Below are positions 6,374 to 60,118 of a DNA stretch of 64,000 bases, piece by piece. The position numbers and the translations under genes are program-made. The stretch comes from Candidatus Brocadiia bacterium (GTDB taxonomy: Bacteria; Planctomycetota; PUPC01; DSUN01). The stretch's first letter is position 1; each line of letters begins with the position of its first letter. The notes beneath the pieces were generated by a model. That model ran no database searches, was not told the DNA's origin, and was given only the letters and a program-made list of their open reading frames with translations. Where the stretch lies: positions 7,642 to 71,641 of the forward strand of contig JBKHIY010000009.1 of NCBI GenBank assembly GCA_046538415.1, read 5' to 3'.

Positions 6374-6388
6374 CGGCACGGGGTTTGC
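6374..6388 (+). promoter_or_regulatory. sigma-54 (RpoN) -24/-12 promoter motif
   Basis: cGGCAC-ggggt-TTGC (GG-N10-GC), about 130 nt upstream of the PEP-CTERM protein start. Confidence 0.6.
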
Positions 6389-6520
6389 GCCTATCCCCAT
6401 CGGCCGACGCACTGTCGCGCCCCCAACGAGCCCGGCGCGCCCCCCCGGCACGCCGAGGAGCGCCGGCGCGGCGGGGGGGAGAATGCACCCAGGCCGCATT
6501 CACATATGGAGGTCCCGACA

Positions 6521-8620
6521 ATGCTCCGTCGACCTGCAACCCTGTTCACTGCCTTGTGCCTCAGCGCCCTCCTGGCCGGCGCCGCCCAGGCAGGCTGGAT
6601 CGGCACCGACATCCAGCCCGCGGGCTCCACCACCATCGAGTCGGGAGGAGTCGTACGCGTGGTGGGCTGGGGAGCCGACCTGTGGGGCAACAGCGACGGC
6701 TTCCACTATGCCTACATGCCCGCGGCCGGCGACTTCGACGTCAGCATCCACCTCACCGACCTCGTCCGCGCCCCCGACTACTGGACCAAGGCCGGCCTCA
6801 TGCTCCGCGAGGAGCTCACCGCCGACTCCGCCAACGAGCTGGCCATGCTCCACCGCAAGGGCAACAATAACTCCAGCGGACGCGTCCGCCACCAGAACCG
6901 CCCCTCCGCCGGCTCCGGCACCTCGGGAACGGGACCCGTGGACATCAACGCCGAGGACGCCTGGCTCCGCCTCGTCCGCGCCGGCTCCGCCGTCAACAGC
7001 TACTACGCCACCGGCCCCACCCGGCCCACCGACGACACCAGCACCGACGGCTGGACCGAGATGGCCTCCCGCACCCTCGGCTGGGCCGACCCCAGCGCCG
7101 GCTACCTGGGCCTCGCCCTCACCAGCCACAACCCCACTCGCTGGGCGGAGGCCACCTTCCAGGAGTTCCACGACCATCAGCTCGGCGTCGACCTCGACCC
7201 CACCACCCTGCCCATGACCTCCCAGGACTTCTCCCGCTACGCCGCCGGCAACCACACCGAGGCCGGCGGCCAGCTCGTCATCAACGGCGACGGCGCCGAC
7301 ATCTGGGACGAGGGCGACAACTTCTACTACCTCTACCAGGACAGCCCCGTGGACGGCGACTTCAACGCCGTCGTCCGCCTGGTGAGCCAGCAGAGGACCA
7401 ACGGATGGGCCAAGGCCGGCCTCATGGCCCGCCAGGAGGCCACCGGCATCGCCCGCCACGCCCACGTCTCCGCCACCCCCAGCAACGGCGTGACCCTCCA
7501 GTGGCGGAACAACCCCCGGGGCGGCTCCGGCGGCACCGGCCTCGGCGGCTCGCCCGACAGCACCGCCGACGGCTCCGCACCCATCTGGCTGCTGCTCACC
7601 CGCAGGGGCGACACCTTCGCCGCCCGTTGGGCCCCCGACGTGGGCGGCCTGCCCGGCACCTGGTCCAGCGCCATCGACCACACCGTGGGCGGGATGCCCG
7701 ACCAGGCCCTCGTGGGCCTCAACGCCACCAGCCACAATAACGGCACCCTCGGCGAGGCCGTCTTCGACAACTTCATCCTCGGCCTCTGGGAAGCCCGCGG
7801 CGCCCTCGGCGTCGCAGGACCCAAAAACCCCCGCGTGGTGGGCAAGGCCTACGGCGTCGACCCCGACACCGGCACCGTGCTCGGCCCCGCACGCTGGAAG
7901 ATCGAGCGCCTGCGCACCGACACCACCTCGGGCCTCACCATCGAGTGGTTCGAGAACGAAGGCTGGAGCGGCGACCCCGCCTACACCGCCGTGGTGCCTG
8001 ACATCAACCGAGGCGACCAGGACTACCCGGGAACCCCCTGGGGCGGGAACCAGGACCACTTCTCCGTCCGCTACAGCGGCCAGCTCCACATCGCCAGCGA
8101 CGGCCTCTACGCCTTCCGCGAGGAGGTCGACGACCAGGCCATCTTCGACATCGACCTCGACGGCGACGGACTGTTCGAGCCCGGCGACGGCGAGCGCATC
8201 CTGGACAATGGCTCCTGGAGCACCCACACCTCGAACACCGTGGACCTCGCGGCCGGGTGGTACGACATCGAGTTCCGCCAGCGCGAGGGCGGCGGGGGCG
8301 ACTTCTGCCGCCTCCTCTGGGACCCCACCGGCGGCAGCGACTGGGCCGCGGTGCCCGAGGACGTCCTCCGCACCGAGTTCACCAGCGTCGAGGCCCTCCT
8401 CGCCGAAGGCTACCACAACGTGGGCGGCCCCGACGAGGACGGATACTTCGGCGTCTTCCTGGGCGAGCCCGAGGAGTGGCAGCTGCGGCTCACGGTGGAC
8501 TACATGGGCGAGCTGTTCGTGACCGAGGACACCTTCATGGGCGTCCCCGAGCCCGCCACCTGCCTGCTGCTCGGCGGCGGCCTGGCCGCCCTCGTCCGCC
8601 GGCGCCGCCGCAGGGCCTGA
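6521..8620 (+). CDS. secreted PEP-CTERM-anchored protein: two ConA-like (DUF1349-type) domains + PA14 domain
   Basis: Inner part of ORF 5774..8620. ATG 6521 lies 8 nt after GGAGG and gives signal peptide MLRRPATLFTALCLSALLAGAAQA. An internal duplication is visible (GFHYAYMPAAGDFDVSIHL..YWTKAGLMLRE versus NFYYLYQDSPVDGDFNAVVRL..GWAKAGLMARQ). The PA14-like stretch reads FSVRYSGQLHIASDGLYAFREEVDDQAIFDID. The C-terminus is VPEPATCLLLGGGLAALVRRRRRRA. Confidence 0.85.
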   Translation: MLRRPATLFTALCLSALLAGAAQAGWIGTDIQPAGSTTIESGGVVRVVGWGADLWGNSDGFHYAYMPAAGDFDVSIHLTDLVRAPDYWTKAGLMLREELTADSANELAMLHRKGNNNSSGRVRHQNRPSAGSGTSGTGPVDINAEDAWLRLVRAGSAVNSYYATGPTRPTDDTSTDGWTEMASRTLGWADPSAGYLGLALTSHNPTRWAEATFQEFHDHQLGVDLDPTTLPMTSQDFSRYAAGNHTEAGGQLVINGDGADIWDEGDNFYYLYQDSPVDGDFNAVVRLVSQQRTNGWAKAGLMARQEATGIARHAHVSATPSNGVTLQWRNNPRGGSGGTGLGGSPDSTADGSAPIWLLLTRRGDTFAARWAPDVGGLPGTWSSAIDHTVGGMPDQALVGLNATSHNNGTLGEAVFDNFILGLWEARGALGVAGPKNPRVVGKAYGVDPDTGTVLGPARWKIERLRTDTTSGLTIEWFENEGWSGDPAYTAVVPDINRGDQDYPGTPWGGNQDHFSVRYSGQLHIASDGLYAFREEVDDQAIFDIDLDGDGLFEPGDGERILDNGSWSTHTSNTVDLAAGWYDIEFRQREGGGGDFCRLLWDPTGGSDWAAVPEDVLRTEFTSVEALLAEGYHNVGGPDEDGYFGVFLGEPEEWQLRLTVDYMGELFVTEDTFMGVPEPATCLLLGGGLAALVRRRRRRA

Positions 8621-8647
8621 GCCTGCACGACGCACCCGCGCCCACTC

Positions 8648-8678
8648 GGGGCGCCACCCGACTCCCGGGCGGCGCCCC
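8648..8678. terminator. GC-rich hairpin in convergent intergenic region
   Basis: GGGGCGCC (8648-8655) pairs with GGCGCCCC (8671-8678). No clear U-tract. Confidence 0.4.
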
Positions 8679-8767: not shown

Positions 8768-9184
8768 CTAGGCCAGGGCTCCGGCCCACCGGCCGTCGAG
8801 CCCAGCGGAAGGGGAGGCATGCACCGTGACCGGCCGCAGCAGCCGCCGAATCAGACGCACTACCGGCTCCACCTCGACAGAGCGGCTCACCACCGCGTCG
8901 GCGGCCCCCCCGCGGCAGGCCCCCTCGGCCGCCGCGTCCTCCGCCTGGAGCACCACCACCATCTCCTCGAGGCCCCGGCGCCGCAGGAGGGCGGCCAGGG
9001 TGGAGCCCTCCATGTCCGGCAAGCGCTCGCGGGCCACCAGGAGGTCGACCTGGAAAGAGCGGAGGAGGCCTAGCGCCTCCTCGGCGGTCTCCGCCAGGAG
9101 GGTGAAGTAGCCGGTCTGGCGGAGCCTGGCGTCCAGCCGCTCTCGCAGGGTGGACCAGTCTTCGGCGATCAGAATGGTTTGCAT
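8768..9184 (-). CDS. single-domain response-regulator receiver, apparently degenerate
   Basis: ORF 8768..9184. MQTILIAEDW...VDLLVARERLPDMEG has the receiver pattern, but by-eye alignment puts Arg/Ala where the phospho-acceptor Asp (DLvllD) is expected. It lies 11 nt downstream of the HD-GYP gene. Confidence 0.6.
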   Translation of the reverse strand: MQTILIAEDWSTLRERLDARLRQTGYFTLLAETAEEALGLLRSFQVDLLVARERLPDMEGSTLAALLRRRGLEEMVVVLQAEDAAAEGACRGGAADAVVSRSVEVEPVVRLIRRLLRPVTVHASPSAGLDGRWAGALA

Positions 9185-9195: not shown

Positions 9196-10320
9196 CTACT
9201 TCGTCGCTCCCGCCGGGCCGGCGTGCTGGGCGGGAGGTTCGCTGCCTCGCTCTCGCTTCCCCGGCGCGGCCAGAGGGGAGGGCAGGGCCACGGCCCGAGC
9301 CACCGCGATGCCCGCGGCGTGCAGGTCCACCACCCGCGGCCGCTCCAGCGGCCGCCCCTCGCGGCCGGTCAGCAGGCGCACGTAGGGACGGTCGGGCTCG
9401 TCCCAGTGCGAGGCCACCACCAGGGCTATCTCTCCGCTCTCCAGGCGCACCCCGCTGCCCACGGGATAGAGGCCCAGAGCTCGCAGGAAGCTGGCCGCCA
9501 TCCGCTTGTCGAACCGCGGCGGGCCGAGCTTGCCGAAAGCGTCCAGCACCAGCGCCTCCATCGCCTCGTGGGGCAGCACCGCCTGCTTGTAGGGCCGGGG
9601 GCTGACCATCGTCTCGTACGCCTCGGCCAGGGCCAGGAGCCGGGCGAACTCGTGGGTGTGCGCCGCCCCCAGACCGTCGGGATACCCGCTGCCGTCGGCC
9701 CGCTCGTGGTGCTGGCGCACCACCGCCGGCACCACCCGGCGCAGCAGCCCCTCGAGCTGGCCCCCGCAGCGCAGCAGCTCCGCACCCTCCGCCGCGTGGC
9801 CCCGCAACACCTCGCGCTCCCCCGAGGTCAGCGGCTCCGACTTGGCGAACAGCTCCGCCGACACCCGCTCCAGGCCCACGTCGTGGAGCAGCGCACAGAG
9901 GCCCACCACCTCCACCGTCGAGGGCTGGAAGCCGTGGGCCTCCGCCACGTGGAGGGCCAGGCAGGCCGTGTGCACCGAATGGCGCACCAGCAACTCCCGC
10001 CGCACGGCCTCCGCCTCCGCCCCCGGGCCCAGCAGCGCCGCGGGATACGCCATGTCGAGGGCCCGGAGCGGGTCCTCGTGCAGCCGACGCCGCAGCGAGG
10101 CCACCACCCGCGGGGCACGGGCCGGGGCCAGGGCGGCAGGAGGCATGGCCACGGGAGCGTGGGGCGCCGCAGGGGGCGCCGGCAGGTGCCCGGCCGAGCC
10201 CTCCGCGCGCCGGGCCTCGACGTGCTCGGCCACGAAGTCCTCAATGCGCCGCGCGTCGTCGCGGCGATGCCGAGCCGCGCCGCCCACGTCGCGGCGCAGG
10301 GACTTCTCCGATGCGTCCAT
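9196..10320 (-). CDS. HD-GYP domain c-di-GMP phosphodiesterase
   Basis: Inner part of ORF 9196..10401. ATG 10320 (MDASEKS) follows GGAAGGGTGG. Motifs LLHDVGLERV and HHERADGSGYPDGL are present. The longer start would overlap the sigma-54 motif at 10398. Confidence 0.8.
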   Translation of the reverse strand: MDASEKSLRRDVGGAARHRRDDARRIEDFVAEHVEARRAEGSAGHLPAPPAAPHAPVAMPPAALAPARAPRVVASLRRRLHEDPLRALDMAYPAALLGPGAEAEAVRRELLVRHSVHTACLALHVAEAHGFQPSTVEVVGLCALLHDVGLERVSAELFAKSEPLTSGEREVLRGHAAEGAELLRCGGQLEGLLRRVVPAVVRQHHERADGSGYPDGLGAAHTHEFARLLALAEAYETMVSPRPYKQAVLPHEAMEALVLDAFGKLGPPRFDKRMAASFLRALGLYPVGSGVRLESGEIALVVASHWDEPDRPYVRLLTGREGRPLERPRVVDLHAAGIAVARAVALPSPLAAPGKRERGSEPPAQHAGPAGATK

Positions 10321-10397
10321 CGCGGTCCACCCTTCCTGCCCAGCTCGGCCCGCTGGGCGTGGGGGAGGCCGGCGCGGGCCTCGCCAGAGCGCCGTGA

Positions 10398-10412
10398 GCA
10401 AACGCCATGCCC
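10398..10412 (-). promoter_or_regulatory. sigma-54 -24/-12 promoter motif
   Basis: Minus strand reads gGGCAT-ggcgt-TTGC, about 78 nt upstream of the HD-GYP start. Confidence 0.5.
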
Positions 10413-10519: not shown

Positions 10520-11371
10520 TCACGGCGCCTCGCCGCCGCGGGCCGCCACCAGGCGGCGATAGCAGCGGCCGACCACCAGCCCGACCTCGTCCGGCCGCTG
10601 GGGCTCGGCGATGTAGTCGTCGCAGGCGCGAAGGGCCTCGCCCCCGGGCCCCTCGAGGGCGGAAGCGCTTGCCAGAGCGATAGTTACCACCCGCTGGCGA
10701 CGGGCCGCCAGCTCCGCCACCAGCCGCCCGCCCTCGGCCACCAACAGCGGAGCCGCGGCCAGCACCAGCGAACAGCCGTGCGCCCCCACCAGGCTCACCG
10801 CCTCCGGCACGCTGTTTGCCACATACACCGTGTAGCCCTGCTTGACAAGAAGGCCGGTGAGCCGCTCCCGCTCGGGGCCGGGCTCGCAGGCGACGCAGAC
10901 CTGGGCCAGCCGGCCCTCCTCCTCGGGCCTGTGGGACGCCAGCACGCGGTCCAGGCCCACGAAGGAGGCCCCGCACTCCCACTGGTCGCCCCGACGCTCG
11001 GCGCGCGCCACCTCGACGAACACCCTCCGCTCGCCCAGCGAGCCGGGCAGGTAGACGGTGAGCACCTCGCCAGGCTCCAGGCCCGCACGGGTGAACAGCC
11101 GCAGGCCGCCGCGCGAGATGTCCCGCACCATCGCCCGGTGCAGGCCCTGCTCGCCGCGCCGCCCGGGGCCGCCGGGCCGATGGCGCAGGAAGCTCACCTC
11201 CAGGTCGATGGGGTGGCGCTCGAAAGCCCGACGGTCCGGACCGCCCCAGCCCCGCGGCTGCGGCCGAGCCGGGCCGGCCCGGCGGGCCAGAAGCTCGTCG
11301 ATCGTGCGGCGGGCCTCCCGCAGCTCCTCCACCGACAGGCTGCGGAGGACCTCCTCGATCGCTTGGCGCAC
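10520..11371 (-). CDS. PilZ-domain c-di-GMP receptor fused to a pseudo-receiver domain
   Basis: ORF 10520..11371, GTG start. PilZ signatures RRAFERH and DISRGG are present. The C-terminal 120 aa are receiver-like (VCVACEPGPE...GCSLVLAAAP...VVTIALAS) but lack the DD pocket and acceptor Asp by eye. Confidence 0.7.
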   Translation of the reverse strand: MRQAIEEVLRSLSVEELREARRTIDELLARRAGPARPQPRGWGGPDRRAFERHPIDLEVSFLRHRPGGPGRRGEQGLHRAMVRDISRGGLRLFTRAGLEPGEVLTVYLPGSLGERRVFVEVARAERRGDQWECGASFVGLDRVLASHRPEEEGRLAQVCVACEPGPERERLTGLLVKQGYTVYVANSVPEAVSLVGAHGCSLVLAAAPLLVAEGGRLVAELAARRQRVVTIALASASALEGPGGEALRACDDYIAEPQRPDEVGLVVGRCYRRLVAARGGEAP

Positions 11372-11536
11372 GCGTCGTCCACCTCGCAGGCAGGCTCTTG
11401 AGGCCGATACTGAAACAGAATTCTAGCGCCTTTTCCGCGCCGGGCAAGGGCGGTTTTGCCCTTCCCGCGGCCCCGCCGCCTGCGTGCCCCCGCGCGGCGG
11501 GCCGCGCCGGCCGCCGGGAACACAGGGGGACCTCTC

Positions 11537-11731
11537 GTGGCGAAGCTCACCGAGAAGCTCGGACTGCGCATCGACACCCGGCGTTTCCTCCGCCAGCTCG
11601 CCGAGGCTCGACGCCGCTACGCCGCGCACCCGCCGGAGCCTATCGAACTCGAGGCACAGCAGCCCCGCCTGCCCTCGCGGCGGAGCCGCTCCCCGGACGC
11701 CACGCCCCGGGAGCCCGACACCGACACCTGA
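11537..11731 (+). CDS. possible small protein (64 aa), function unknown
   Basis: GTG 11537 lies 7 nt after AGGGGGA, inside ORF 11456..11731. It reads VAKLTEKLGLRIDTRRFLRQLAEARRRYAAHPPEPIELE... There is no family resemblance, and it may be non-coding leader. Confidence 0.25.
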   Translation: MAKLTEKLGLRIDTRRFLRQLAEARRRYAAHPPEPIELEAQQPRLPSRRSRSPDATPREPDTDT

Positions 11732-11775
11732 GCGCGGCCCCACGCCGCGCCCCGAGACCAGGAGGACATCTCCCC

Positions 11776-12477
11776 ATGGCACCCAGGCCACTCGCACTCG
11801 CCCTGGCCGGCCTGGTGGCGCTCGGCGCCTCGGGGTGCGCCCCGAAGCCCGGCCCCTCGGCCGCCGAGCCCCCCGAGCCCGCCGGCACCCCCGCCGCGCC
11901 CGTGAGCCCCGAGGCCCGCTCCGCCCTCGCCCAGGGGCCGCCCCTCCGGCTCGACAACCAGGTGCTCGGCGGCGAGGCCAGCCTCCTGGAGAAGCTCCAG
12001 GACGCCCTCGCACGCCTCAGCCAGGCCGAGGAAGCGAAGAAGGAACTCGCCGCGCGCCTGAACGCCGCCACGCAGCGCAACACCGCCGCACAGCAGGAGG
12101 CCGCCGAGCTCGAGCGCCAGGTCCAGCAGCTCACCCAGATGCACGACGATGCCGCCCAAGCCCTGGCCAAGGCCCAGGCACAGCTCCAGGAGGCCCAGGC
12201 GACCATCCAGGAGCTGCGCCCCAAGGCCCAGGAGGCCGACCGCGCCACCCAGCGCGTGGCCACGCTCGCCGAGCAGATCGAAGAGCTCAAGACCGCCAAC
12301 CAGCAGCTCCGCGACAAACTCCTCCAGGCCGAACTCGACCGCGTGAAAGCCCAGCAGGACCTGGTGGCCCTCCAGATCGTCATGGCCCGGCAGCGGGCCC
12401 TCATCCGCCGCAAGGGCGGCGACCAGGCCAAGGCCCCCACACCCCAGACCCCGGTGGCCCAGGAGACCTCGCCATGA
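11776..12477 (+). CDS. lipoprotein with about 170-aa coiled coil
   Basis: Inner part of ORF 11398..12477. ATG 11776 lies 9 nt after GGAGGA. The lipobox is LVALGASG-C. A long heptad-like Q/A/E/L-rich segment follows (LEKLQDALARLSQAEEAKKELAARLN...DRVKAQQDLVALQ). Confidence 0.75.
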   Translation: MAPRPLALALAGLVALGASGCAPKPGPSAAEPPEPAGTPAAPVSPEARSALAQGPPLRLDNQVLGGEASLLEKLQDALARLSQAEEAKKELAARLNAATQRNTAAQQEAAELERQVQQLTQMHDDAAQALAKAQAQLQEAQATIQELRPKAQEADRATQRVATLAEQIEELKTANQQLRDKLLQAELDRVKAQQDLVALQIVMARQRALIRRKGGDQAKAPTPQTPVAQETSP

Positions 12478-13130
12478 CGAGCCGCGCCGCCCTCCTGCCC
12501 CTGGCCATGGCCCTCCTCGCCGGCTGCGGCGGCCCTCTCTTCGCACCCCCGCCGCCCGAAGTGAGCATCTACCGCTCCCCCGAGCTGGGGCGAAACGGAC
12601 GCGAGCGGGTGCTCGTGCTGCCCTTCCGCCACCGCGACGAGGGGGTATCGCGGGCCGTCACCGAGGCCTTCGCCCTCGAGCTCGCCAAGACCCAGGCCTT
12701 CGAGGTCATCAGCCCCGAAGACCCGCAGGCCGGACCCGCCGCCGATACCCCGCTGTGGGACGACGGGGGCCTCGACGTGCCGGCCCTGGTGGCCCTGCGC
12801 CGCCGCCTCAACGTCCAGGCCCTGGTCCTCGGCCACGTCACCCACTACCGCCCCTACGACCCTCCCGTCCTGGGCCTCCGCGTCCAGGTCGTCTCGACCC
12901 GCTCGGGCTCCGTGCTGTGGGGGGCCGAGGCGTGCTTCGACGCGCGGGAGGAAGGGGTGCGTGCCCTGATGAGGAAGTTCCACGGACGGCGGTTGAGCGA
13001 CCAGGCCGAGACCTACGGCTGGCGCATCCTGCTCGACTCGCCCCGGCACTACGCCCAGTTCGTCTCGCGCCAGTTGGTGGCCACCCTGGGCGCGGATGCG
13101 GGCCGCCTGCTGGCCGAAAAGACCCCGTGA
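12474..13130 (+). CDS. lipoprotein, LpoB/FlgO/TolB-N-like fold suspected
   Basis: Inner part of ORF 11484..13130. ATG 12474 overlaps the upstream stop (ATGA). The lipobox is LLAG-C. VLVLPFRHRDEG..AFALELAKTQAFEVIS...LVLGHVTHY...LRVQVVSTRSGSVLW follows the pattern of small periplasmic alpha/beta lipoproteins. Confidence 0.7.
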   Translation: MTSRAALLPLAMALLAGCGGPLFAPPPPEVSIYRSPELGRNGRERVLVLPFRHRDEGVSRAVTEAFALELAKTQAFEVISPEDPQAGPAADTPLWDDGGLDVPALVALRRRLNVQALVLGHVTHYRPYDPPVLGLRVQVVSTRSGSVLWGAEACFDAREEGVRALMRKFHGRRLSDQAETYGWRILLDSPRHYAQFVSRQLVATLGADAGRLLAEKTP

Positions 13131-13139
13131 GGAGCGACC

Positions 13140-13421
13140 ATGGAGATCCACGACGTCGGCGGCCCCCGCCAGCCCCGGCCCCCGCAGCACCAGGAGTCGT
13201 CCCGGCAGGCCTCGCGGCGCTCGGCGGACGGCGACCGGGTGGACATCTCGCCGCGCGCCCGCCGCGCCGTCCACGCCAGCCGCCTCGCCCGCCGCGTGCT
13301 CGCCCTGCCCGAGACGCGCCCCGCCGCCGTGCGGGCCGCCCGCCAGGCCCTCCACCGCGGGGAGCTGCTCGCGCCGCCCGCCATCCGGGCTACCGTGCGA
13401 GGCATGATCCCCGACCGGTAA
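13140..13421 (+). CDS. flgM: anti-sigma-28 factor FlgM
   Basis: ORF 13140..13421 after GAGGAG. DRVDISPRARR...ETRPAAVRAARQALHRGELLAPPAIRATVRGMI matches the FlgM C-terminal pattern. Confidence 0.75.
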   Translation: MEIHDVGGPRQPRPPQHQESSRQASRRSADGDRVDISPRARRAVHASRLARRVLALPETRPAAVRAARQALHRGELLAPPAIRATVRGMIPDR

Positions 13422-13616: not shown

Positions 13617-14045
13617 CTAGTGGAGGTCCTTGGTCCGCTCCCCGGGCTCGACAACGGCGGTGACCCGCAGGCCGAAGCTCTCGTCCACCACCACGATTTC
13701 GCCCTGGGCGACCACGTGGTCGCGGATCACCAGGTCCACGGGCTCGCCGGCCATGCGGTCGAGCTCCAAGATGGAGCCGGGCTTGAGGGCGAGGAGCTCC
13801 TCGACGGTCATCTCCGTGCGCCCCAGCTCCACGACCACGGGCACCTCGAGGTCGAGGATGAGGTCGAGGGGCGGGGCTTCGTCGGTGGCCGCCTCGTCGC
13901 TGGAGTCCTCGCTGAGGGGGCTGAAGGCCACGGGGCTCACCGCCACCTCTCCCTGCCCGCCGCCCTCGGCGTCCTGCGCGGTCTGGGCCTGCTCCTGGGC
14001 GGGAGCTTCGGCGTCGACGGCGGCTTCGGCTTCGTCACTCATCAT
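13617..14045 (-). CDS. fliN: flagellar motor switch protein FliN
   Basis: ORF 13617..14045. An acidic N-terminus is followed by the SpoA domain LEVPVVVELGRTEMTVEELLALKPGSILELDRMAGEPVDLVIRDHVVAQGEIVVVDESFGLRV. Confidence 0.9.
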   Translation of the reverse strand: MMSDEAEAAVDAEAPAQEQAQTAQDAEGGGQGEVAVSPVAFSPLSEDSSDEAATDEAPPLDLILDLEVPVVVELGRTEMTVEELLALKPGSILELDRMAGEPVDLVIRDHVVAQGEIVVVDESFGLRVTAVVEPGERTKDLH

Positions 14046-15042
14046 GGGTCTGGTTTCCTTTGCGAGGGGGCTGGGGGACGCGGGTGAGCTGGACGCCGAG
14101 GCGCTTGCCCACCAGTCCGGGCTGGCCGGTGAACCGGTGCCTGCCCTCGACGGTTACGGCGAGGGGCTGGCCGACCCGGGAGTCGAGGCGCACGACGTGG
14201 CCGGGCTGGAGGTTCATCAGGTCGAGTGCGGAGATGCGGGCCCGTCCCAGCTCCACGGCCACGCGCAGGGGTGCGGCGCCGATGGCCCGTCGGAGAACGT
14301 CCGTGGCCTCGGCCTCCGCCTGCTGCTCCTCCTCGAAGGCGGCGGCCAGACGAGCCCGCTCCCGGGGCACCAGCCGGTCGACGACCGCGGCGGGCAGACA
14401 GAAGCCGATGTCGCCCACGCAGGTGTCGCCCCCCACGGCGAAGGTGACCTGGAGCACCATGTCGCGAACGCCCAGGAACTGGACTTCGCGGGGGTCCATG
14501 GCCATGGCCTCGGGCTGGAAGCTCACGGACGTGAGGTTCGACCACGCCCCGGCCAGGGTCTCCAGCACGGCGGCGATGGGCTTGGCGAGGAGAGCCTGCT
14601 CCACCGCGGTGAGGGGCCGTGGCTGGTCGAGGGCCTCGCCCTGGCCGCCCAGGAGGCGGTCGACGATGCCCAGGGCGAGGGAGATGTCCACGGTGAGCAG
14701 CCCGCGCCGGCCGGGGGGCTCGACGCGGAAGAGCTGGAGGCACACGGGGACGGGGAGGGCGGAGTTGAAGGCCCCGTAGGCCACGAAGTCGCTGCCCGCG
14801 ACGTTGGCCTCCACGGGGGTGCGGAGCAGGTCGCCGAGGGCGCTGGAGAGGGCCTGGGCGGCCTCCTCGTGGAGCCGCTCGATGGCCCGCAGCTGGTCGC
14901 GCGAGAGGCGGCTCTTGGAGCCGAAGTCGTAGGGGCGGATCTCGCGCCCGTCGGCGGCGTCGCCCTCCCCCTCGGGCACGTCGCCCTCGTTGACCGCGGT
15001 GAGCAGGTTGTTGAGCTCCTCGGCGCTGAGCAGCTCGCTCAT
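14035..15042 (-). CDS. fliM: flagellar motor switch protein FliM
   Basis: Inner part of ORF 14035..15114. ATG 15042 gives MSELLSAEELNNLL, a CheY-P-binding-type N-terminus. The C-terminus is a SpoA domain. Confidence 0.9.
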   Translation of the reverse strand: MSELLSAEELNNLLTAVNEGDVPEGEGDAADGREIRPYDFGSKSRLSRDQLRAIERLHEEAAQALSSALGDLLRTPVEANVAGSDFVAYGAFNSALPVPVCLQLFRVEPPGRRGLLTVDISLALGIVDRLLGGQGEALDQPRPLTAVEQALLAKPIAAVLETLAGAWSNLTSVSFQPEAMAMDPREVQFLGVRDMVLQVTFAVGGDTCVGDIGFCLPAAVVDRLVPRERARLAAAFEEEQQAEAEATDVLRRAIGAAPLRVAVELGRARISALDLMNLQPGHVVRLDSRVGQPLAVTVEGRHRFTGQPGLVGKRLGVQLTRVPQPPRKGNQTHDE

Positions 15043-15053
15043 GGCTGGACGTC

Positions 15054-15569
15054 CTACTGGATCATGAACTCGGTGAAGTAGGCGTGGAGGACGGCGTCGG
15101 GGAGGCCCAGGCACTCGTTCACCGAGAGGCGTAGCTCGCGGAGGAGCTGGTCCTTGTGCTCCTTGCCCTCCACGTCCTCGAGGCGCTTCTCGGAGAGCAG
15201 GGAGATGAGCAGATGGCGGATCTCGGTGAGGTGCGCGGCGAACTCCTTCTTGGCCTCCTCGTCCTTGGCCCGGAACACGATGGTGGCCTTGAGCATGCGG
15301 CGTCCCCGCTCGTCGGCCAGGTTCACCATCACCTCCAGGGGCTCCAGGGAGGTGCCCTTGGGCTGCTCCGGCCGCGGGGCCCGCTCGCCGGGCCGGGCCG
15401 GGCTCTCGAACCTGGCCAGCACGGAGGGGAGGGCCACGGCACCCAGCACGGTGCCCAGCAGGGCGCAGCCCAGGAGCACGAGGAGGGGCGCGAGGCGGGC
15501 GAAGCGGCCCGTCCCGCTGGCCTCCGGGGGGGTCTCCTGGTCTTCGGCGGGAGCTTGGTCGTCGGCCAT
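15054..15569 (-). CDS. fliL: flagellar basal-body-associated protein FliL
   Basis: ORF 15054..15569. One TM segment, then LEVMVNLADERGRRMLKATIVFRAKDEE...YFTEFMIQ. Confidence 0.85.
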   Translation of the reverse strand: MADDQAPAEDQETPPEASGTGRFARLAPLLVLLGCALLGTVLGAVALPSVLARFESPARPGERAPRPEQPKGTSLEPLEVMVNLADERGRRMLKATIVFRAKDEEAKKEFAAHLTEIRHLLISLLSEKRLEDVEGKEHKDQLLRELRLSVNECLGLPDAVLHAYFTEFMIQ

Positions 15570-15585
15570 GGGAGGGTCCTTTCGG

Positions 15586-16299: not shown

Positions 16300-16302
16300 G
16301 GC

Positions 16303-17804: not shown

Positions 17805-17814
17805 GGCAGGGGCC

Positions 17815-18854: not shown

Positions 18855-18881
18855 GGCGCGTCCTCCGGGACGTGTTCGCTA

Positions 18882-19361: not shown

Positions 19362-19363
19362 GC

Positions 19364-22387: not shown

Positions 22388-22401
22388 GGTGTGTAGGGTC
22401 C

Positions 22402-45588: not shown

Positions 45589-45610
45589 GGGGCCTCTCCA
45601 GGGAGCTGGC

Positions 45611-47905: not shown

Positions 47906-47917
47906 GGCCGCACTCCC

Positions 47918-48809: not shown

Positions 48810-48821
48810 CGGGCCTCCTCC

Positions 48822-49955: not shown

Positions 49956-50019
49956 GGCCTGGGCTCCGAGGCGGCGAGGCGCATCGCTTGCCGGGCGGGC
50001 TCCCGCCCGAGGCGGGGCG

Positions 50020-50667: not shown

Positions 50668-50694
50668 GGCATCTCGCTCCTCGTGTGCACGCGG

Positions 50695-51666: not shown

Positions 51667-51677
51667 AGCTCCTGGGG

Positions 51678-52469
51678 CTAGCGGACCACGTTGTTGGCCT
51701 GCTCGAGCATGCTGTCGCTGGTGCGGATGGCCCGGGAGTTCACCTCGTAGGCCCGCTGGGCGATGATGAGGCTCACCAGCTCGGTCACCACGTCCACGTT
51801 GGAGCCTTCGAGGAAGCCGTGATTGAGCTCGCCCAGGCCGTTGGCCCCGGGGGTGCCCACGGTGGGCGAGCCCGAGGCCACGGTCTCCGCGTAGAGATTC
51901 CCGCCCAGGGCCTCCAGGCCCGCGGGGTTGGGAAACGAGGCGATCTGAATCTGGCCCACCACCTGGGCGTCCTGCGAGGAGCCGGTGCGCACGGTCACCG
52001 TGCCGTCCGGGCCCACCGCTACGTCCGTAGTATCGGACGGGACCGTGATCTGGGGGCTGAGCAGGTAGCCCTGGGCGGTGACCAGCTGGCCCTGGGCATT
52101 CACGCGGAACGAGCCGTCGCGAGTGTAGACCGTCTGGCCCAGGGCGGGCTGGACGATCTGGAAGAAGCCGCCTCCGCTGATGGCCAGGTCGAACTTGCCC
52201 CCCGTGGGCTGGAGCGAGCCCTGCTTGAAGTTCCGCAGCGTCGAGATGTGCCGCACCCCCGAGCCGATCTCCAGGCCGCTGGGCATCTGGTAGCCCTGCA
52301 CCGACTCCGCGCCAGGGCTCACCAACGTCTCGTAGAGCAGGTCCTGGAAGTCCAGCCGCGTCTTCTTGAACCCCGTGGTGTTCACGTTCGCGATGTTGTT
52401 GGAGATGTTGTCCACCCGCAGTTGCTGGGCCTTCATCCCCGTGGCGGACGTGAAGAGCGACCTGAGCAT
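51678..52469 (-). CDS. flgG: flagellar distal rod protein FlgG
   Basis: Inner part of ORF 51678..52484. ATG 52469 lies 6 nt after GGAGG and gives MLRSLFTSATGMKAQQLRVDNISNNIANVNTTGFKK. The C-terminus has ..LIIAQRAYEVNSRAI. Confidence 0.95.
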   Translation of the reverse strand: MLRSLFTSATGMKAQQLRVDNISNNIANVNTTGFKKTRLDFQDLLYETLVSPGAESVQGYQMPSGLEIGSGVRHISTLRNFKQGSLQPTGGKFDLAISGGGFFQIVQPALGQTVYTRDGSFRVNAQGQLVTAQGYLLSPQITVPSDTTDVAVGPDGTVTVRTGSSQDAQVVGQIQIASFPNPAGLEALGGNLYAETVASGSPTVGTPGANGLGELNHGFLEGSNVDVVTELVSLIIAQRAYEVNSRAIRTSDSMLEQANNVVR

Positions 52470-52494
52470 GGCCATCCTCCGCAAAGGGCGGTCT

Positions 52495-53217
52495 CTAGCT
52501 GGCGGCCTCGTTCAACTGCTCCATGCTTTCGTCGATGGACACCAGGGCCCGCTGGGCGGCCTCGAAGCCGCGCAGCGTCGTGATCATCGCCACCAGTTCG
52601 TCGATGGCGTTCGTGTTCGAGCCCTCCACCGCTCCCTGCACCACCGTGGCACCCTCGAGGGTGGCGGGAGCCGCCGCTCCGTCGGACAGGGCGAAGGCCG
52701 TGTAGGCCGCGGGACGCAGCACCTCGGGCTGCGGGATGTCCACCACCCACACGCGGCCTACCTCGGCGCCGTCGGCGAACACCCGGCCCTCGCGGTCCAC
52801 CACCAGCTCCGTGGTCTCCTCCGGGATGCGCACTGGGCCGCCCCCGGCGCCCACCAGGCCGCGGCCCACCGTGTCCACCACCCGGCCCTCGCCGTCGAGC
52901 ACGAAGCTGCCCTTGCGCGTGTAGACGTAGCCGCTCTGTGCCTGGAGCACGAAAAAGCCCTGGCCCTGGATGGCCAGGTCGAGCGGCCGCTCCGTGGTCA
53001 CCAGGGGGCCGGGGCTGAAGTCGACCACCACGTCGTCGACCTCCGCGCCCGCCAGGCCGCCCAGCTCCGCGGCCAGCTCCGCCTGAAAGGGCTCGAAGAG
53101 CGCCAGGCGGCGCTTGTAGCCCCCCGTGTCGACGTTCGCCAGGTTGTGGGCCAGCACCTCCTGGGCACGGAGGTAGGCCTCGAGCCCGCTGGCGGCGGAG
53201 TAGACTCCAGCGTCCAT
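52495..53217 (-). CDS. flgF: flagellar proximal rod protein FlgF
   Basis: Inner part of ORF 52495..53283. ATG 53217 lies 9 nt after AAGGAG. MDAGVYSAASGLEAYLRAQEVLAHNLANVDTGGYKRR at the N-terminus, and ..MITTLRGFEAAQRAL at the C-terminus. Confidence 0.88.
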   Translation of the reverse strand: MDAGVYSAASGLEAYLRAQEVLAHNLANVDTGGYKRRLALFEPFQAELAAELGGLAGAEVDDVVVDFSPGPLVTTERPLDLAIQGQGFFVLQAQSGYVYTRKGSFVLDGEGRVVDTVGRGLVGAGGGPVRIPEETTELVVDREGRVFADGAEVGRVWVVDIPQPEVLRPAAYTAFALSDGAAAPATLEGATVVQGAVEGSNTNAIDELVAMITTLRGFEAAQRALVSIDESMEQLNEAAS

Positions 53218-53279
53218 ACGGGGCTGCTCCTTCTGCGAGCCGGTTCGGATGGACTCAGTCGCGGCCACGGCGGGAAGGC

Positions 53280-53294
53280 GCAAATGATGTGCCG
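53280..53294 (-). promoter_or_regulatory. sigma-54 -24/-12 promoter upstream of flgF
   Basis: Minus strand reads cGGCAC-atcat-TTGCg, about 63 nt upstream of the flgF ATG. Confidence 0.65.
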
Positions 53295-53528: not shown

Positions 53529-53978
53529 TCAGGAGCCCTCGGACGCCCCGCTGAGCCGGCGCACCAGCTCATCGAGGTCGCACGCGGCCACCTCCTGGTC
53601 GCTGATCGGGGGCATGTGGCGGAACTTCTCGAACTCCTGCCAGTTCGAGAACTCGACAAACGCCGAGGCAGGCAGGCGGTACTGCGGCTCCCGAGGCCGG
53701 GGGCGGGGCGGCAGCGGCGGGAGCACGGGCTTGCTGGGCTTCGCCTCCTGCGGCGGCGGCGAGGAGGGCTGCCCAGGCCCCTTCTCGGAAAGCCGGCGGC
53801 ATTCGCCCAGCAGCTCCACGATGCGGTCCCGCAGCAGCGACAGGCGCTGGAGCTGCTCGCGCTGGTGGCTCGTGGCCTTCTGCATGCGGCTCGCCGAATC
53901 GGCCAGGCGCTGGGCCGCAAGTCGAAGCGATATAACGAGTTGGAGAAGCGACGGGGCAGGCTCGTTGGGGGTCGACAT
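53529..53978 (-). CDS. hypothetical protein (149 aa), no recognisable family
   Basis: Inner part of ORF 53529..54419. ATG 53978 lies 8 nt after GGAGGA. It has an N-terminal helical segment (LLQLVISLRLAAQRLADSASRMQKATSHQREQLQRLSLLRDRIVELL), a Pro-rich linker, then FVEFSNWQEFEKFRHMPPISDQEVAACDLDELVRRL. Confidence 0.55.
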   Translation of the reverse strand: MSTPNEPAPSLLQLVISLRLAAQRLADSASRMQKATSHQREQLQRLSLLRDRIVELLGECRRLSEKGPGQPSSPPPQEAKPSKPVLPPLPPRPRPREPQYRLPASAFVEFSNWQEFEKFRHMPPISDQEVAACDLDELVRRLSGASEGS

Positions 53979-54269: not shown

Positions 54270-54284
54270 TGGCATGCCGTTTGC
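54270..54284 (+). promoter_or_regulatory. sigma-54 -24/-12 promoter upstream of the fliY-like gene
   Basis: TGGCAT-gccgt-TTGC, about 68 nt upstream of ATG 54352. Confidence 0.6.
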
Positions 54285-54351
54285 CGCCCCGGGCAGACGA
54301 GGCCGCCGCCGGCCCCAGCGCCCTCGGAACCTCCCAGGAGCGAGCACCCCG

Positions 54352-55230
54352 ATGGCCGAAGACGAAGTATCCCAGGCGCTTACGCCTCTACTCCAGGCCG
54401 CCGCGGGCCGGGCCAGCAAGGAGCTGGCGGAATCGCTCGGCGCCGACCTGGAGGCCGACGCCGAACCCGCCGGGCCGCTGGGCGCCCAGGCACTGGCCGA
54501 CCAGGCCAGCGACGGCGCGGTGGTCCTGGCCGGCTCGCTCGCCGGCGCGGTCGAGGCCCCTATCCTCTTTTACATGGAGCGCGGCGACGCCATGCGGTTG
54601 GCCTGCCGCGCCCAGCAGGTGCCCGAGGAGCAGGTCGAGGAGCGGCTGGGGCAGGCCCCCGGGGAGGAAGACCTCGCGGCCATCGCCTTCGCCCTGGCGC
54701 GCATCGGCGCCGCGGCCTCCGCCGTGTGGGAGGAGCAAGCCCAGGGAGTCGCGTGGCCCTCCGAGCCCACCGACCTGAGACCCCAGCTCATCGACTCCCC
54801 CGAGGCCCTGGAGGAAGCTCTGGGCTCCCTCGGCGAGGAGGCCGAGCCGCTGGGCTTCCGCGTGCGACTGGGCGAGCCCGTGGGCGCCAGCCTGCTGCTC
54901 CTGGTCCCTGCCGCCACGGGGCGGGAGCTGGTCGGCGGGGGCACGCCCCAGGCCGGGGCGGCGAAGGGGCTGCCGCGGGAGCTGTCCCGGCTGCTGCGGG
55001 TGCCTTTCGCGGCGCGGGTGGTCATCGCCCGCCGGCAGGTGACGGTGCGGGAACTTCTCCAGCTCGCTCCGGGGCACGTCTTCGAGCTCCAGCGAGGCGC
55101 CCAGGAGCCCCTGGAGCTTCGCGCCGGGGAGAAGCTGCTCGCCCGGGGCGAGGCCGTGACGGTGGACGAGCGGCTGGGCTTCCGCGTGGCCGAGGTCCAC
55201 CGGGGCTCGTCCGAGGGCCGTAAGGGCTGA
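54352..55230 (+). CDS. FliY-like switch protein (CheC-like N-terminal region + FliN/SpoA C-terminal domain)
   Basis: Inner part of ORF 54100..55230, ATG 54352. The C-terminus LRVPFAARVVIARRQVTVRELLQLAPGHVFELQRGAQEPLELRAGEKLLARGEAVTVDERLGFRVAEV is a SpoA domain. The N-terminal ..EEDLAAIAFALARIGAAASAVWE.. is CheC/FliY-like by eye. Confidence 0.7.
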   Translation: MAEDEVSQALTPLLQAAAGRASKELAESLGADLEADAEPAGPLGAQALADQASDGAVVLAGSLAGAVEAPILFYMERGDAMRLACRAQQVPEEQVEERLGQAPGEEDLAAIAFALARIGAAASAVWEEQAQGVAWPSEPTDLRPQLIDSPEALEEALGSLGEEAEPLGFRVRLGEPVGASLLLLVPAATGRELVGGGTPQAGAAKGLPRELSRLLRVPFAARVVIARRQVTVRELLQLAPGHVFELQRGAQEPLELRAGEKLLARGEAVTVDERLGFRVAEVHRGSSEGRKG

Positions 55231-55549
55231 CCGCCCGTCCTCTCCCCTTTACATCCTGCTGTGCCGTTTCGCCTTCCCGCGCCTGGCAGGGCGGGCGAGG
55301 GGGCGGCGCTCCCCTTACATGCTTCTCTCACTCTCGGCCCGGCCGCGGCGATGTGGGCGGCGGCGTCGCCCTTGGGTAGCCGTGGGCCGGGGCCGAGCGG
55401 GAAAAGCTTTCCAGCGACGGGGCATGGAGTAGCCGGGCCGGCGGGGGAGCTGGGCCGGGGAGCGGCGGGGCTTGGCCGAAATCGTATCCTCGTGTTTTGG
55501 AATGCGTTACGCTCTTTCGCGAGGCTCGTGGGGGGCGTTCTGCGGCGTT

Positions 55550-55564
55550 TGGCACGGCGTGTGC
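55550..55564 (+). promoter_or_regulatory. sigma-54 -24/-12 promoter upstream of fliK-flgD-flgE
   Basis: TGGCAC-ggcgt-gTGC, about 53 nt upstream of ATG 55617. Confidence 0.6.
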
Positions 55565-55616
55565 ACGAGGGCGGGTCGCTTCTCTCGCCAGAAGCTCGGA
55601 ATCGGTCGGATCGCAC

Positions 55617-57344
55617 ATGCAGGAGATCGTGTTGAACGCTCTGTTGGGCGTTCCAGCAGGCCTCGCGCCCCCGCTTGCCGGGACATCCGGCGGCGGGGTG
55701 GACCGTCGGGGTCCGGCCGTGCGGTTCGAGACCGAGCTTCTGGAGCTGTCTTCCCCCGTCCTTTCTGCTCCCATCCTTACGCCTGCCGCTCCGACGGGCG
55801 CGCCGACCACCACGGTGTCCGTCGGGGGAGCGGCGCGTCCTGCGGGCGGCGCGGTTTACCGCCTGCGTCCGGCCGCGCCGTGGGCCTTGCTCGACGCGCA
55901 CGGAGGCGCCGGGGCGGGGCCGCAGGCTCTTGTTCCTTCGGGGCTCCGCTCGGCGGTGGTCCCGCGCCGCGGGTCTGAGGGGCTATCTCCCGCGAGGAGC
56001 GCGGCCGGGCCGAGCGAGAGCGTGGTGCCCTCCGTCCGTGCGTCGGAGGGGACCGGGGCGGCGACCGGCCCGCAGAGGACGGCGGGCCGCGTCGCGGCTT
56101 CCCCCGCCATCACCCTGGTTCACGTGTCGGATGCCGCGGGCACCGTGCCCGGCATCCCGGCTGGAGGCGACGGCGCCCCGGATGCCGCCCCGGCCTCTGC
56201 GAGCTTGCCGCGGTCCGCGAATGGGGGGCCGCGTGTGGCCCCGTCCGAGGCGCCGCTACCTGCGGGTGCGCCCCGCGCTGATGCGCCGCGCGGAGCGTCG
56301 GGCCTCGCCGCCGCGCCCGCCGAGGGCGGGGCAGCGACCTCGGTAGTGCCGGAGGGCGTGGGCGCTGCCGCGCTCCTGCACGCGGCGCACCGCTCGCCTG
56401 GCGCGCAGACCCCCGGCGGGGGCGAGCCGGGGACGCCGCAAGGCGCGGAGGCGTCCGCTCGGGCGTCCGCCGTGGCGGCCGCGGCCGTCGCCGTGCCTCG
56501 TGCCCCGCGGCCCGGCGGCGGGCCGGCGGGCGACTCGCCCACAGCCCCCGGCGAGGGCGCCGAGTGGGCCTACCAGGAATGGAGCCGCGGCGCGGCGGGG
56601 CAGGGCGAGCATCGGCCGGCGGCGAGAACATTTGGCATGGCGGAGGAGAATGCCCAGCCGTGGGGTCGGCGGGCCGGTGGCGCGGCGGGTGCGGCGACGG
56701 GCAGTCCTGCTGCCGCCGCCGGCCGCGCCACGGCCCGCCCCATCGCCGAGCCCCTCGGGGGCGACGACGCCGGGCCGTCGGCCCCCCGGCTGGCCGCCGG
56801 CGTCCAGGCACCCTCCGCCCCCATAGGCCAGCCCCTGGCCCCGCGCGAGGCCGCGGGCCACGAGCCGGGGGGCGAGCGCGTGGTGGAGATGGGCCAGCGG
56901 GAGGCGGGCCAGCGAGTGCCCAGCCTGCTCGCCGAGCACGCCCGGCTGGCGGAACGGGGGAGGGAGCAGGAGCTGCGCGTGCGCCTGCGTCCGCCGGACC
57001 TGGGCGAGATTCGCGTGAACTTCCGCTCCCGCGACGGCGTGCTGCGGGGCGCCATCCAGGTGGAGCGCCTGGAGGTGCGCGAGTGGGTGGAGGCCCGGCT
57101 GGCCGGCTGGCGCGAGGAGCTGAGCGGCGCCGGGCTGAAGGTGGACCGGCTCGAGGTCTCGCTGATGCCCCGGGAGGGCGGCGGGGACCACGGGCTGCCC
57201 GGCCGCGGCGACATGCCCCAGCCGCAGGACGCGGCCCCCAGCAGCCCCAAGGGCGCCTCGCCCGGTCCTGCCCCCCAGGCCGGGGGGCCGAGCCTGGGGG
57301 TGAACCTGGCGGGCCGCCGCGGCGGGATCGACTACTTCGCATAG
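55617..57344 (+). CDS. fliK: flagellar hook-length control protein FliK
   Basis: Inner part of ORF 55497..57344, ATG 55617. A long A/P/G-rich ruler region is followed by the Flg_hook domain ELRVRLRPPDLGEIRVNFRSRDGVLRGAIQVERLEVREWVEARLAGWREELSGAGLKVDRLEVSL. Confidence 0.8.
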   Translation: MQEIVLNALLGVPAGLAPPLAGTSGGGVDRRGPAVRFETELLELSSPVLSAPILTPAAPTGAPTTTVSVGGAARPAGGAVYRLRPAAPWALLDAHGGAGAGPQALVPSGLRSAVVPRRGSEGLSPARSAAGPSESVVPSVRASEGTGAATGPQRTAGRVAASPAITLVHVSDAAGTVPGIPAGGDGAPDAAPASASLPRSANGGPRVAPSEAPLPAGAPRADAPRGASGLAAAPAEGGAATSVVPEGVGAAALLHAAHRSPGAQTPGGGEPGTPQGAEASARASAVAAAAVAVPRAPRPGGGPAGDSPTAPGEGAEWAYQEWSRGAAGQGEHRPAARTFGMAEENAQPWGRRAGGAAGAATGSPAAAAGRATARPIAEPLGGDDAGPSAPRLAAGVQAPSAPIGQPLAPREAAGHEPGGERVVEMGQREAGQRVPSLLAEHARLAERGREQELRVRLRPPDLGEIRVNFRSRDGVLRGAIQVERLEVREWVEARLAGWREELSGAGLKVDRLEVSLMPREGGGDHGLPGRGDMPQPQDAAPSSPKGASPGPAPQAGGPSLGVNLAGRRGGIDYFA

Positions 57345-59794: not shown

Positions 59795-59811
59795 GCCTCG
59801 TGGCCTCTGCT

Positions 59812-59849
59812 CCCGCCCGGCCCCGGCCCGCGAGGCGGGGCCGGGCGGG
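59812..59849 (+). terminator. 13-bp perfect-stem hairpin after flgE
   Basis: CCCGCCCGGCCCC (59812-24) pairs with GGGGCCGGGCGGG (59837-49), 18 nt after the flgE stop. Confidence 0.55.
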
Positions 59850-60103
59850 TGACCAAGGGCTAGACACCGTGGGCGGGTGGCTTGTCGGTTTTTCCTAACA
59901 GGCCGTAGGGTCTTGGGAGCGCGTCGGTTGCGGCGGCGCGGCCGGCGCGGAACGCAGCGCCCATGTCGGTAAAAGCTGAAAGATGCGCAGCGGCGAGGAC
60001 GCGGGGGAGCGAGGACTTGGCGGGGCCTGGGGCGACGTAACCGCCCTGCGAGGGGAGGGTTGCAGCTTCGCGCCGAGCGGGGGTGGGGCCTGCGGCGGCG
60101 GGG

Positions 60104-60118
60104 TGGCACAGCGTTTGC
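60104..60118 (+). promoter_or_regulatory. sigma-54 -24/-12 promoter (consensus-perfect) upstream of the EPS export locus
   Basis: TGGCAC-agcgt-TTGC, about 140 nt upstream of ATG 60259. Confidence 0.65.

Follow-up and report, generated by a model that had tools for sequence, protein, structure and literature searches.

In Campylobacter jejuni and Helicobacter pylori, FlgS-FlgR and sigma-54 control the rod and hook genes, sigma-28 controls the major flagellin gene, and FliW-CsrA acts on flagellin. The early flagellar genes of epsilonproteobacteria are sigma-70 dependent. Vibrio cholerae with FlrA/FlrBC and Pseudomonas aeruginosa with FleQ/FleSR have four-tier cascades. Sigma-54 promoters are gated one by one by an activator bound at an upstream enhancer. 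Here we analyzed a 64,000-nucleotide stretch of contig JBKHIY010000009.1 (the window), which we read as the near-complete main flagellar gene cluster of an uncultured member of the Planctomycetota. Nine sigma-54 cores in it are very likely genuine −24/−12 promoters. They precede flagellar operons, an operon that encodes two NtrC-type activators (EBP1 and EBP2), and three non-flagellar units: a PEP-CTERM protein gene, an HD-GYP phosphodiesterase gene, and an exopolysaccharide (EPS) operon headed by a small MerR-type gene.

The cluster resembles that of Campylobacter and Helicobacter in its response-regulator activators with adjacent kinases, in the sigma-54 cores before the rod, hook, and fliK operons, in the sigma-28-type promoter before flagellin, and in the presence of fliW and csrA. 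It differs in that the fliF/fliG/fliI motor-export operon and the activator operon are also preceded by sigma-54 cores, and in having two activators instead of one, neither of which reaches the FlgR cut-off. With Vibrio and Pseudomonas it shares two sigma-54 activators, sigma-54 cores before early and middle operons, and a late sigma-28 flagellin. Unlike in those systems, both activators are receiver-containing NtrC types without a FleQ/FlrA-type N-terminus, the regulatory operon contains a partner-switching pair and TPR proteins, and no flhF, flhG, or fliA was found near the cluster.

The GC content of the window is 72%. The relatives of its FlgE in reference genomes are all from Planctomycetota, the closest being 65% identical, and we take the host to be an uncultured planctomycete of high GC for which no close reference genome has been sequenced. 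Genes were modeled from codon usage and annotated with Pfam and NCBIfam. For comparison, 30 loci of relatives (handles of the form L001) were fetched through FlgE, EBP2, FliM, and PA14 homologs.

All nine motifs listed in the first-pass annotation are present at their positions and on the gene strand (Table 1). At each of them GG and GC are exactly 10 nt apart in a TGGCAC-N5-TTGC-like context. The pattern GGCAYN5TTGC has 9 matches in the window against 0.83 expected, and none of 100 dinucleotide shuffles reached 9. An approximate sigma-54 matrix gave 10 matches of at least 14 bits against 0.95 expected, with a maximum of 5 in 200 shuffles. Eight of these 10 fall within 3.9% of the position/strand combinations, namely intergenic positions that lie 20-400 nt before a gene on the same strand (binomial p = 2e-10). 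The cores are thus strongly enriched in the window and correct in strand and position. The scores of eight of the nine sites are 14.7-19.7 bits; that of the PEP-CTERM site is 12.4 bits. Distances are those between the −12 GC and the start codon; for three genes (flgF, fliK, and PEP-CTERM) the start was first corrected by eye from Shine-Dalgarno and N-terminal sequences. They are 53-141 nt, close to the range of about 50-140 nt given previously, except for fliD at 357 nt.

The core at 39967 is probably the one site that the annotation had not counted as intergenic. It overlaps codons 6-11 in the longest form of a small conserved open reading frame (ORF) upstream of fliD. Third-position GC is about 68% in the N-terminal half of this ORF and 87% in the C-terminal half, and its true start is therefore uncertain. 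The ORF had been labeled flaG, but it has no Pfam match, FlaG included. In the window as a whole, a sigma-54 core precedes every flagellar structural operon except flagellin.

Look-alikes in coding sequence at 15725, 10805, and 43342 (the last within an AT-richer gene) would fit the idea that all nine sites are chance GG-N10-GC occurrences in 72% GC DNA. The ten-fold enrichment over dinucleotide shuffles, the concentration of matches in the small target space, and the conservation at orthologous positions described below all argue against such a compositional artefact. It is effectively refuted for the whole set, and we regard it as extremely improbable. The first two look-alikes, which the first-pass annotation had not listed, are probably not promoters and were rejected. 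The match at 15725-15740 (−), TGGCACgctatCTGCa, the third best of the matrix, lies inside motB and is a coding coincidence: it corresponds to the conserved OmpA-domain codons VARYLH, and synonymous changes destroy its GG and GC in L026 and L027. The match at 10805-10820 (+) is antisense in the PilZ gene and recurs in L023 at the same codon offset, where it encodes ANS/TVP; coding constraint is the best explanation for both.

Relatives with proteins about 50-80% identical keep seven of the nine cores at orthologous intergenic positions; support for the other two, the HD-GYP and PEP-CTERM sites, is indirect. The alignments show conservation of the GGCAC and TTGC blocks, with a peak at GG and GC, and divergence of the 5-nt spacer and the flanks. 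Conserved blocks with a free spacer are what sigma-54 recognition predicts. The flgF core is kept in L002, and there are cores at the place of the fliN-like one in L001 and L002. The fliK core is an identical 16-mer in L002 and reads TGGCACgctttGTGCt in L001. The MerR/EPS core is kept in L001, L002, and L023, the small ORF/fliD core in L024 and L025, and the flgB core in L024 as GGGCACaccatTTGCa. The EBP2 core is kept in L023 and L024 and is weaker in L025. For the HD-GYP-receiver site there is a partial parallel only, a sigma-54 core before an orphan receiver gene beside PilZ in L023. In L029 and L030, a strong core, CGGCACGCCGTTTGC, stands about 45 nt upstream of the start of the PA14/PEP-CTERM homologs, which supports a sigma-54-driven expression of this family.

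As the first-pass annotation had claimed, two NtrC-type activators are encoded in the window; REC, AAA+, and HTH_8 domains and intact sigma-54 contact loops are found in both. Each is accompanied by a neighboring histidine kinase, and all are in one operon preceded by a sigma-54 core. The order of this operon is EBP2, histidine kinase, REC-RsbW-like kinase, STAS, three TPR proteins, a FlgN-like protein, PAS histidine kinase, and EBP1. It is the same in L024 and L025 and shortened in L023. Neither activator could be assigned to a named family with NCBIfam: their scores are 327 and 336 bits for FlgR and 389 and 360 bits for FlbD (equivalog cut-off 750 for both), and 397 and 383 bits for PrsR (TIGR02915, cut-off 502.6). 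Their best match, AtoC, is also under its cut-off.

Within this operon, the REC-RsbW-like kinase and STAS genes (32122-33826, −) stand with the three TPR genes and the FlgN-like gene, an arrangement kept in L023-L025. Such a partner-switching module might take over the role of FlgM in gating sigma-28. A metagenome scan with the REC-RsbW-like protein returned domain-level paralogs only.

Candidate enhancers were found upstream of several cores. A GGGAA-N5-TTCC palindrome is common to the flgB and fliK upstream regions. Its flgB copy has the equivalent GGGAAACCTTTTCCC at −103 in L024, and its fliK copy is identical in L002 and conserved in L001. In 218 kb (the window and related loci), GGAA-N5-TTCC occurs 7 times, each time 96-210 nt before a core of the flgB or fliK type, and the pairing is also present in the distant Planctomycetota loci L004 and L008 (about 38% FlgE identity). 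Upstream of EBP2 there is a different, perfect palindrome, TGTACG-N6-CGTACA. It is kept in L023-L025, and without mismatches it occurs only once in the window. A three-way alignment of the MerR/EPS upstream region gave two further boxes, which are unlike the flagellar palindrome. None of these elements (GGAA-N5-TTCC, the TGTACG palindrome, the EPS boxes) was found upstream of the PEP-CTERM and HD-GYP genes. On balance, at least three enhancer types appear to be present. AAAAGCT had been considered as a common enhancer word. It has just 3 occurrences, all near cores, but the copy at the former flaG is not kept in L024/L025 and the EPS copy is within a different conserved box, and it was replaced by GGAA-N5-TTCC. 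An unbiased search for enriched 8-mers upstream of 11 cores yielded nothing that passed multiple testing.

Several points weigh against the sigma-54 reading or parts of it. No rpoN was found in the window and the 30 fetched loci (tblastn with an E. coli RpoN query), and fliA is likewise absent from the window and the fetched loci. The matrix is approximate, written after the Barrios 1999 consensus and not built from a curated set, and a high score alone is fallible because the third-best match is a coding coincidence. At the PEP-CTERM site, 12.4 bits is a level with about 3 chance matches per window, and the position of the core in L029/L030 differs from the aligned position in the window; there is an appreciable, if minor, probability that this site alone is a chance match. 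GGAA-N5-TTCC was picked out only after inspection, and its seven occurrences come from just two independent promoter families. Near the EPS, flgF, fliN-like, and EBP2 promoters there are also degenerate TTTTCC half-sites, and a shared control is conceivable. Finally, any pairing of the activators with the enhancers is purely inferred.

The lack of an rpoN match there would suit a real motif with another role, either the operator of a different DNA-binding protein or an RNA element. Planctomycetes usually possess rpoN (PMC3372290). Only GGCAC and TTGC are conserved, at fixed spacing and with a free spacer, which is the signature of sigma-54; the motif is always on the gene strand and at promoter distance; the window also encodes activators that have sigma-54 contact loops; and an Rfam scan of the whole window found no RNA family, and thus no c-di-GMP (cyclic diguanosine monophosphate) riboswitch. 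We therefore consider this alternative very unlikely, and the sigma-54 reading of the window is held with good confidence.

Whether the nine promoters form one regulon is a separate matter. The first-pass annotation had suggested an integrated motile-sessile regulon, in which the two activators would co-regulate flagella, c-di-GMP turnover, the PEP-CTERM protein, and EPS export. The shared promoter class stands, and all of these units have it within 64 kb. Other observations also fit a common regulon: flgE adjoins the MerR/EPS operon in L001 and L002 (with the EPS gene order of the window in L002), the EPS operon lies beside flagellar regulators in L023, PilZ and the sigma-54-preceded receiver adjoin EBP1 in L023, and TTTTCC half-sites recur at four promoters. 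However, a shared sigma factor does not imply co-regulation, because specificity is set by the activator at the enhancer. The conserved upstream elements are not the same for the flagellar promoters, the activator operon, and the EPS operon; the PEP-CTERM, HD-GYP, and EPS promoters lack the full palindrome; and the PrsR cut-off was missed. It would be odd for opposed lifestyles to be controlled in one direction, and downstream of fliN the PEP-CTERM and HD-GYP genes do not keep their place in relatives. Sigma-54 promoters are independently gated, and planctomycete sigma-54 regulons are predicted to reach well beyond motility (PMC12316311). A single regulon is therefore an unlikely explanation. 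Since their upstream elements differ, the non-flagellar units most likely answer to other activators, and flagellar and non-flagellar promoters are probably served by different ones. The three non-flagellar units share a sigma factor and a neighborhood, not demonstrably a signal. The result is a set of predicted sigma-54 promoters in a little-studied lineage, and one shared motile-sessile regulon is not demonstrated.

At the L023 locus (4406-4637 and 3243-3590), a fliK-type core and two GGGAA-N5-TTCC enhancers lie 0.8 kb upstream of the MerR/EPS promoter and point into it, while fliK-flgD-flgE are missing. This arrangement may be a natural rewiring of the flagellar enhancer onto the EPS operon; within the single-regulon explanation, it counts as a further link between the two systems.

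Under the sigma-54 reading with separate activators, and by analogy with characterized sigma-54 systems, RNA polymerase with RpoN would sit on each core as a closed complex. Firing would require a phosphorylated NtrC-type activator at an enhancer about 100-270 bp away and ATP-driven remodeling. The GGGAA-N5-TTCC palindromes at flgB and fliK would mark the direct targets of one flagellar activator, and the sigma-54 promoter of the activator operon with its distinct palindrome would imply autoregulation or a cascade. Basal body, hook, and cap would thus be made through a sigma-54 activator cascade and the filament through sigma-28. Filament synthesis would be the last tier, as suggested by the sigma-28-type promoter, the GGA leader, and FliW and CsrA nearby.

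The flagellin gene has no sigma-54 core upstream. Its promoter element fits the sigma-28 consensus (TAAA-N15-GCCGATAA-like). In the flagellin leader (41996-42035, −) there is a hairpin with GGA in the loop, CACGGGTAAGGAAACCCGAG, and the ribosome-binding site AAGGAGGA; both look like CsrA sites. With fliW and csrA in the cluster and a GGA-containing flagellin leader, the locus resembles the known FliW-CsrA-flagellin circuit. Neither fliA nor flgM is in the window. The sequence GCCGATACTGA, exactly the flagellin −10 region, also occurs at 11403-11413 (+), with no TAAA-like −35. This copy is upstream of four small genes (11537-13421) with no known function, one of which has a signal peptide.

Table 1. 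Promoter cores, candidate regulatory elements, and genes of the window (strand "." for palindromes)
Feature	Coordinates	Strand	Details
Core CGGCACggggtTTGCg, PA14/PEP-CTERM gene	6374-6389	+	133 nt to ATG 6521; 12.4 bits, weakest of nine
Core GGGCATggcgtTTGCt, HD-GYP gene	10397-10412	−	78 nt; 15.1 bits
Core CGGCATggcatTTGCa, flgB	25341-25356	−	86 nt; 17.4 bits
Core TGGCACaggctTTGCg, EBP2	36340-36355	−	87 nt; 16.5 bits
Core TGGCACatcatTTGCc, small conserved ORF/fliD/fliS	39966-39981	−	357 nt to fliD; 19.3 bits
Core CGGCACatcatTTGCg, flgF	53279-53294	−	63 nt to ATG 53217; 15.4 bits
Core TGGCATgccgtTTGCc, fliN-like gene	54270-54285	+	68 nt; 16.4 bits
Core TGGCACggcgtGTGCa, fliK	55550-55565	+	53 nt to ATG 55617; 14.7 bits
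Core TGGCACagcgtTTGCt, 65-aa MerR-type gene	60104-60119	+	141 nt to ATG 60259; 19.7 bits, best-scoring
Candidate enhancer palindrome GGGAAACCCCTTCC	25446-25459	.	~96 nt upstream of flgB core
Candidate enhancer palindrome GGGAAAAGCTTTCC	55399-55412	.	~144 nt upstream of fliK core
Perfect palindrome TGTACG-N6-CGTACA, candidate enhancer	36618-36635	.	~270 nt upstream of EBP2 core
MerR/EPS upstream boxes TTGTCGGTTTTTCCTAACA and GTCGGTAAAAGCTGAAAG	59882-59900; 59965-59982	+	Three-way alignment
Sigma-28-type promoter TTAA-N15-GCCGATAC (TTAAC-N14-GCCGATAC), flagellin	42235-42261	−	Kept in L024 and L025
Regulatory operon	25470-36254	−	10.8 kb; Pfam
EBP2	34839-36254	−	REC-AAA+-HTH_8; GAFTGA loop
PAS histidine kinase	26859-28145	−	
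EBP1	25470-26852	−	REC-AAA+-HTH_8; GSFTGA variant loop
flgB-flgC-fliE-fliF-fliG-fliH-fliI-fliJ-unknown-flbD-motA-motB-motB-fliL-fliM-fliN	13617-25256	−	16 genes; gene model, Pfam
fliS; fliD; flagellin	36670-37110; 37298-39610; 40137-41987	−	
flgF-flgG-flgA-flgH-flgI-flgJ (rod-binding)-flgN-flgK-flgL-fliW-csrA	43902-53219	−	Pfam
292-aa protein (fliN-like gene)	54352-55230	+	FliN C-terminal domain
fliK, then flgD and flgE	55617-57344, then to 59794	+	
75-aa MerR-type and 320-aa HTH_36 genes	42591-43821	+	Divergent pair
Secreted PA14 protein with PEP-CTERM sorting tail	6521-8620	+	Pfam PA14, PEP-CTERM
Single-domain receiver	8768-9184	−	
HD-GYP phosphodiesterase	9196-10320	−	Pfam HD_5; HD at residue 146, HHERADGSGYP 204-214
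PilZ protein	10520-11371		Upstream of HD-GYP; RxxxR and DISRGG motifs
65-aa MerR-type gene (60259-60456), export protein, chain-length determinant, XrtA-associated-ATPase-like	60259-63999	+	

Gene order is kept in the relatives compared. The 16-gene run from flgB to fliN has small intergenic gaps and is thus likely a single operon; its order is identical in L026-L028. The block from flgF to csrA is likely also a single operon and is syntenic in L002, L024, and L025. In the flgB leader there is a hairpin, GCCGCGAG-TGCGA-TTCGCGGC (25291-25311, −), followed by a 22-nt stretch identical in L024. Downstream of motA are tandem motB paralogs (15586-17022, −), an arrangement kept in L026-L028. Between fliJ and flbD is a 263-aa gene without a family match (18063-18854, −), which L026-L028 also have, and a 118-aa gene without a family match (53529-53885, −) lies between flgF and the fliN-like gene and is 57% identical in L002. 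The 75-aa MerR-type/HTH_36 pair is kept between csrA and flagellin in L023-L025, and therefore it is part of the cluster and not a mobile insertion. A perfect TTGACA-N17-TATAAC promoter (42489-42517, +) is located before this pair.

The labels PEP-CTERM, HD-GYP, and MerR-like/EPS of the first-pass annotation were borne out by Pfam and NCBIfam (Poly_export, Wzz-like, XrtA-associated-ATPase-like). The PEP-CTERM tail scores 22.8 for TIGR02595 (cut-off 16). A TGTC-N10-GACA palindrome, TGTCaggagaagccGACA, at 6248-6265 (+) precedes the PEP-CTERM core by about 110-125 nt. L029 and L030 do not keep it and have a long TTGATTTCCGGCAAC inverted repeat instead. The HD-GYP and receiver genes likely form a two-gene operon. 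In the EPS operon the export protein scores 122.6 bits (equivalog cut-off 180), the chain-length determinant 147.5 bits (equivalog cut-off 278.9), and the XrtA-associated-ATPase-like protein 319.9 bits (cut-off 324.5), the gene of the last being cut by the window end.

Between the MerR/EPS core and the 65-aa MerR-type gene there is a hairpin with a T-run (60154-60180, +), followed by a TGTCCnGGACA palindrome and GGACA direct repeats in 10-bp phase (60184-60223, +). The whole element (60154-60223) is nearly invariant in L001, L002, and L023. As RNA, the conserved pairs of the leader are invariant and showed no covariation. The GGACA-repeat element may serve the 65-aa MerR-type protein as an operator, or it may provide GGA sites for CsrA. 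The 65-aa protein consists of the DNA-binding domain alone. It matches PDB entries 6amk and 6ama ("Putative DNA-binding protein") with E about 2e-4 to 4e-4, which we take to be BldC of Streptomyces. BldC is a stand-alone MerR-type DNA-binding domain that binds direct repeats. The likeness is weak, no better than to other MerR N-terminal domains (3qao, 7e-8), and it is a guess that the 65-aa protein binds the GGACA repeats.

These elements could be joined into a broader scheme, a motile-to-attached (swarmer-to-sessile) switch that combines a phylum-wide GGAA-N5-TTCC enhancer, a self-activating activator operon, and flagellar-EPS coupling. In such a switch, GGAA-N5-TTCC with the sigma-54 core would be read by one of the two activators, the partner-switching module may stand in for FlgM, and the hook operon would be hard-wired beside an XrtA-type EPS operon with a GGACA operator and a BldC-like mini-regulator. 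Taken together, this scheme is doubtful.

Earlier work bears on the locus. Sigma-54 activators of Pirellula sp. strain 1 were reportedly analyzed by Studholme and Dixon in 2004. A 2025 survey with a position-specific scoring matrix, which cites this in silico study, found the predicted sigma-54 promoters of Planctomycetia to be enriched for genes of motility, for activator genes, and for csrA (PMC12316311). These surveys concern the same phylum and the same kind of inference, but they are at class level, and the window is from a different, uncultured high-GC lineage. We found no description of the enhancer palindromes, the sigma-28 tier, or the EPS linkage in this survey literature, and no experimental work on sigma-54 flagellar control in planctomycetes was found in the literature. 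In Proteobacteria, a sigma-54 motif was reported before PEP-CTERM genes, with PrsK, PrsR, and PrsT (Haft et al. 2006, PMC1569441), and these three are absent from Rhodopirellula baltica (Table 1 in PMC1569441). Similar to that system, the PEP-CTERM protein of the window is the product of a lone gene that follows a long intergenic region containing a sigma-54 motif. The EPS locus has export, chain-length, and ATPase-like genes that resemble the XrtA-associated type but score below its cut-offs. Unlike in that system, a small MerR-type gene heads the EPS operon, XrtA/EpsH is not within the window, and both activators are below the PrsR cut-off. Francke et al. 2011 (PMC3162934) argued that sigma-54 links flagella with exopolysaccharide and the cell surface. 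The window likewise has sigma-54 cores before flagellar, exopolysaccharide, and surface genes; the earlier study is a cross-phylum statistical association, and planctomycetes are unmentioned in its searched text.

The general picture is unchanged, since sigma-54 control of flagella and surface polysaccharide is textbook knowledge elsewhere and was already predicted for Planctomycetia. The most useful additions are the enhancer palindromes kept in relatives and the conserved neighborhood of flagellar and EPS genes with its GGACA-repeat leader, and the association of sigma-54 with PEP-CTERM proteins would be extended beyond Proteobacteria. Planctomycetes alternate between swimming and attached cells, and their flagellar regulation has hardly been studied experimentally. 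For this lineage the window yields a testable wiring diagram of nine cores, two candidate enhancers, two activators with their kinases, and a sigma-28 tier.

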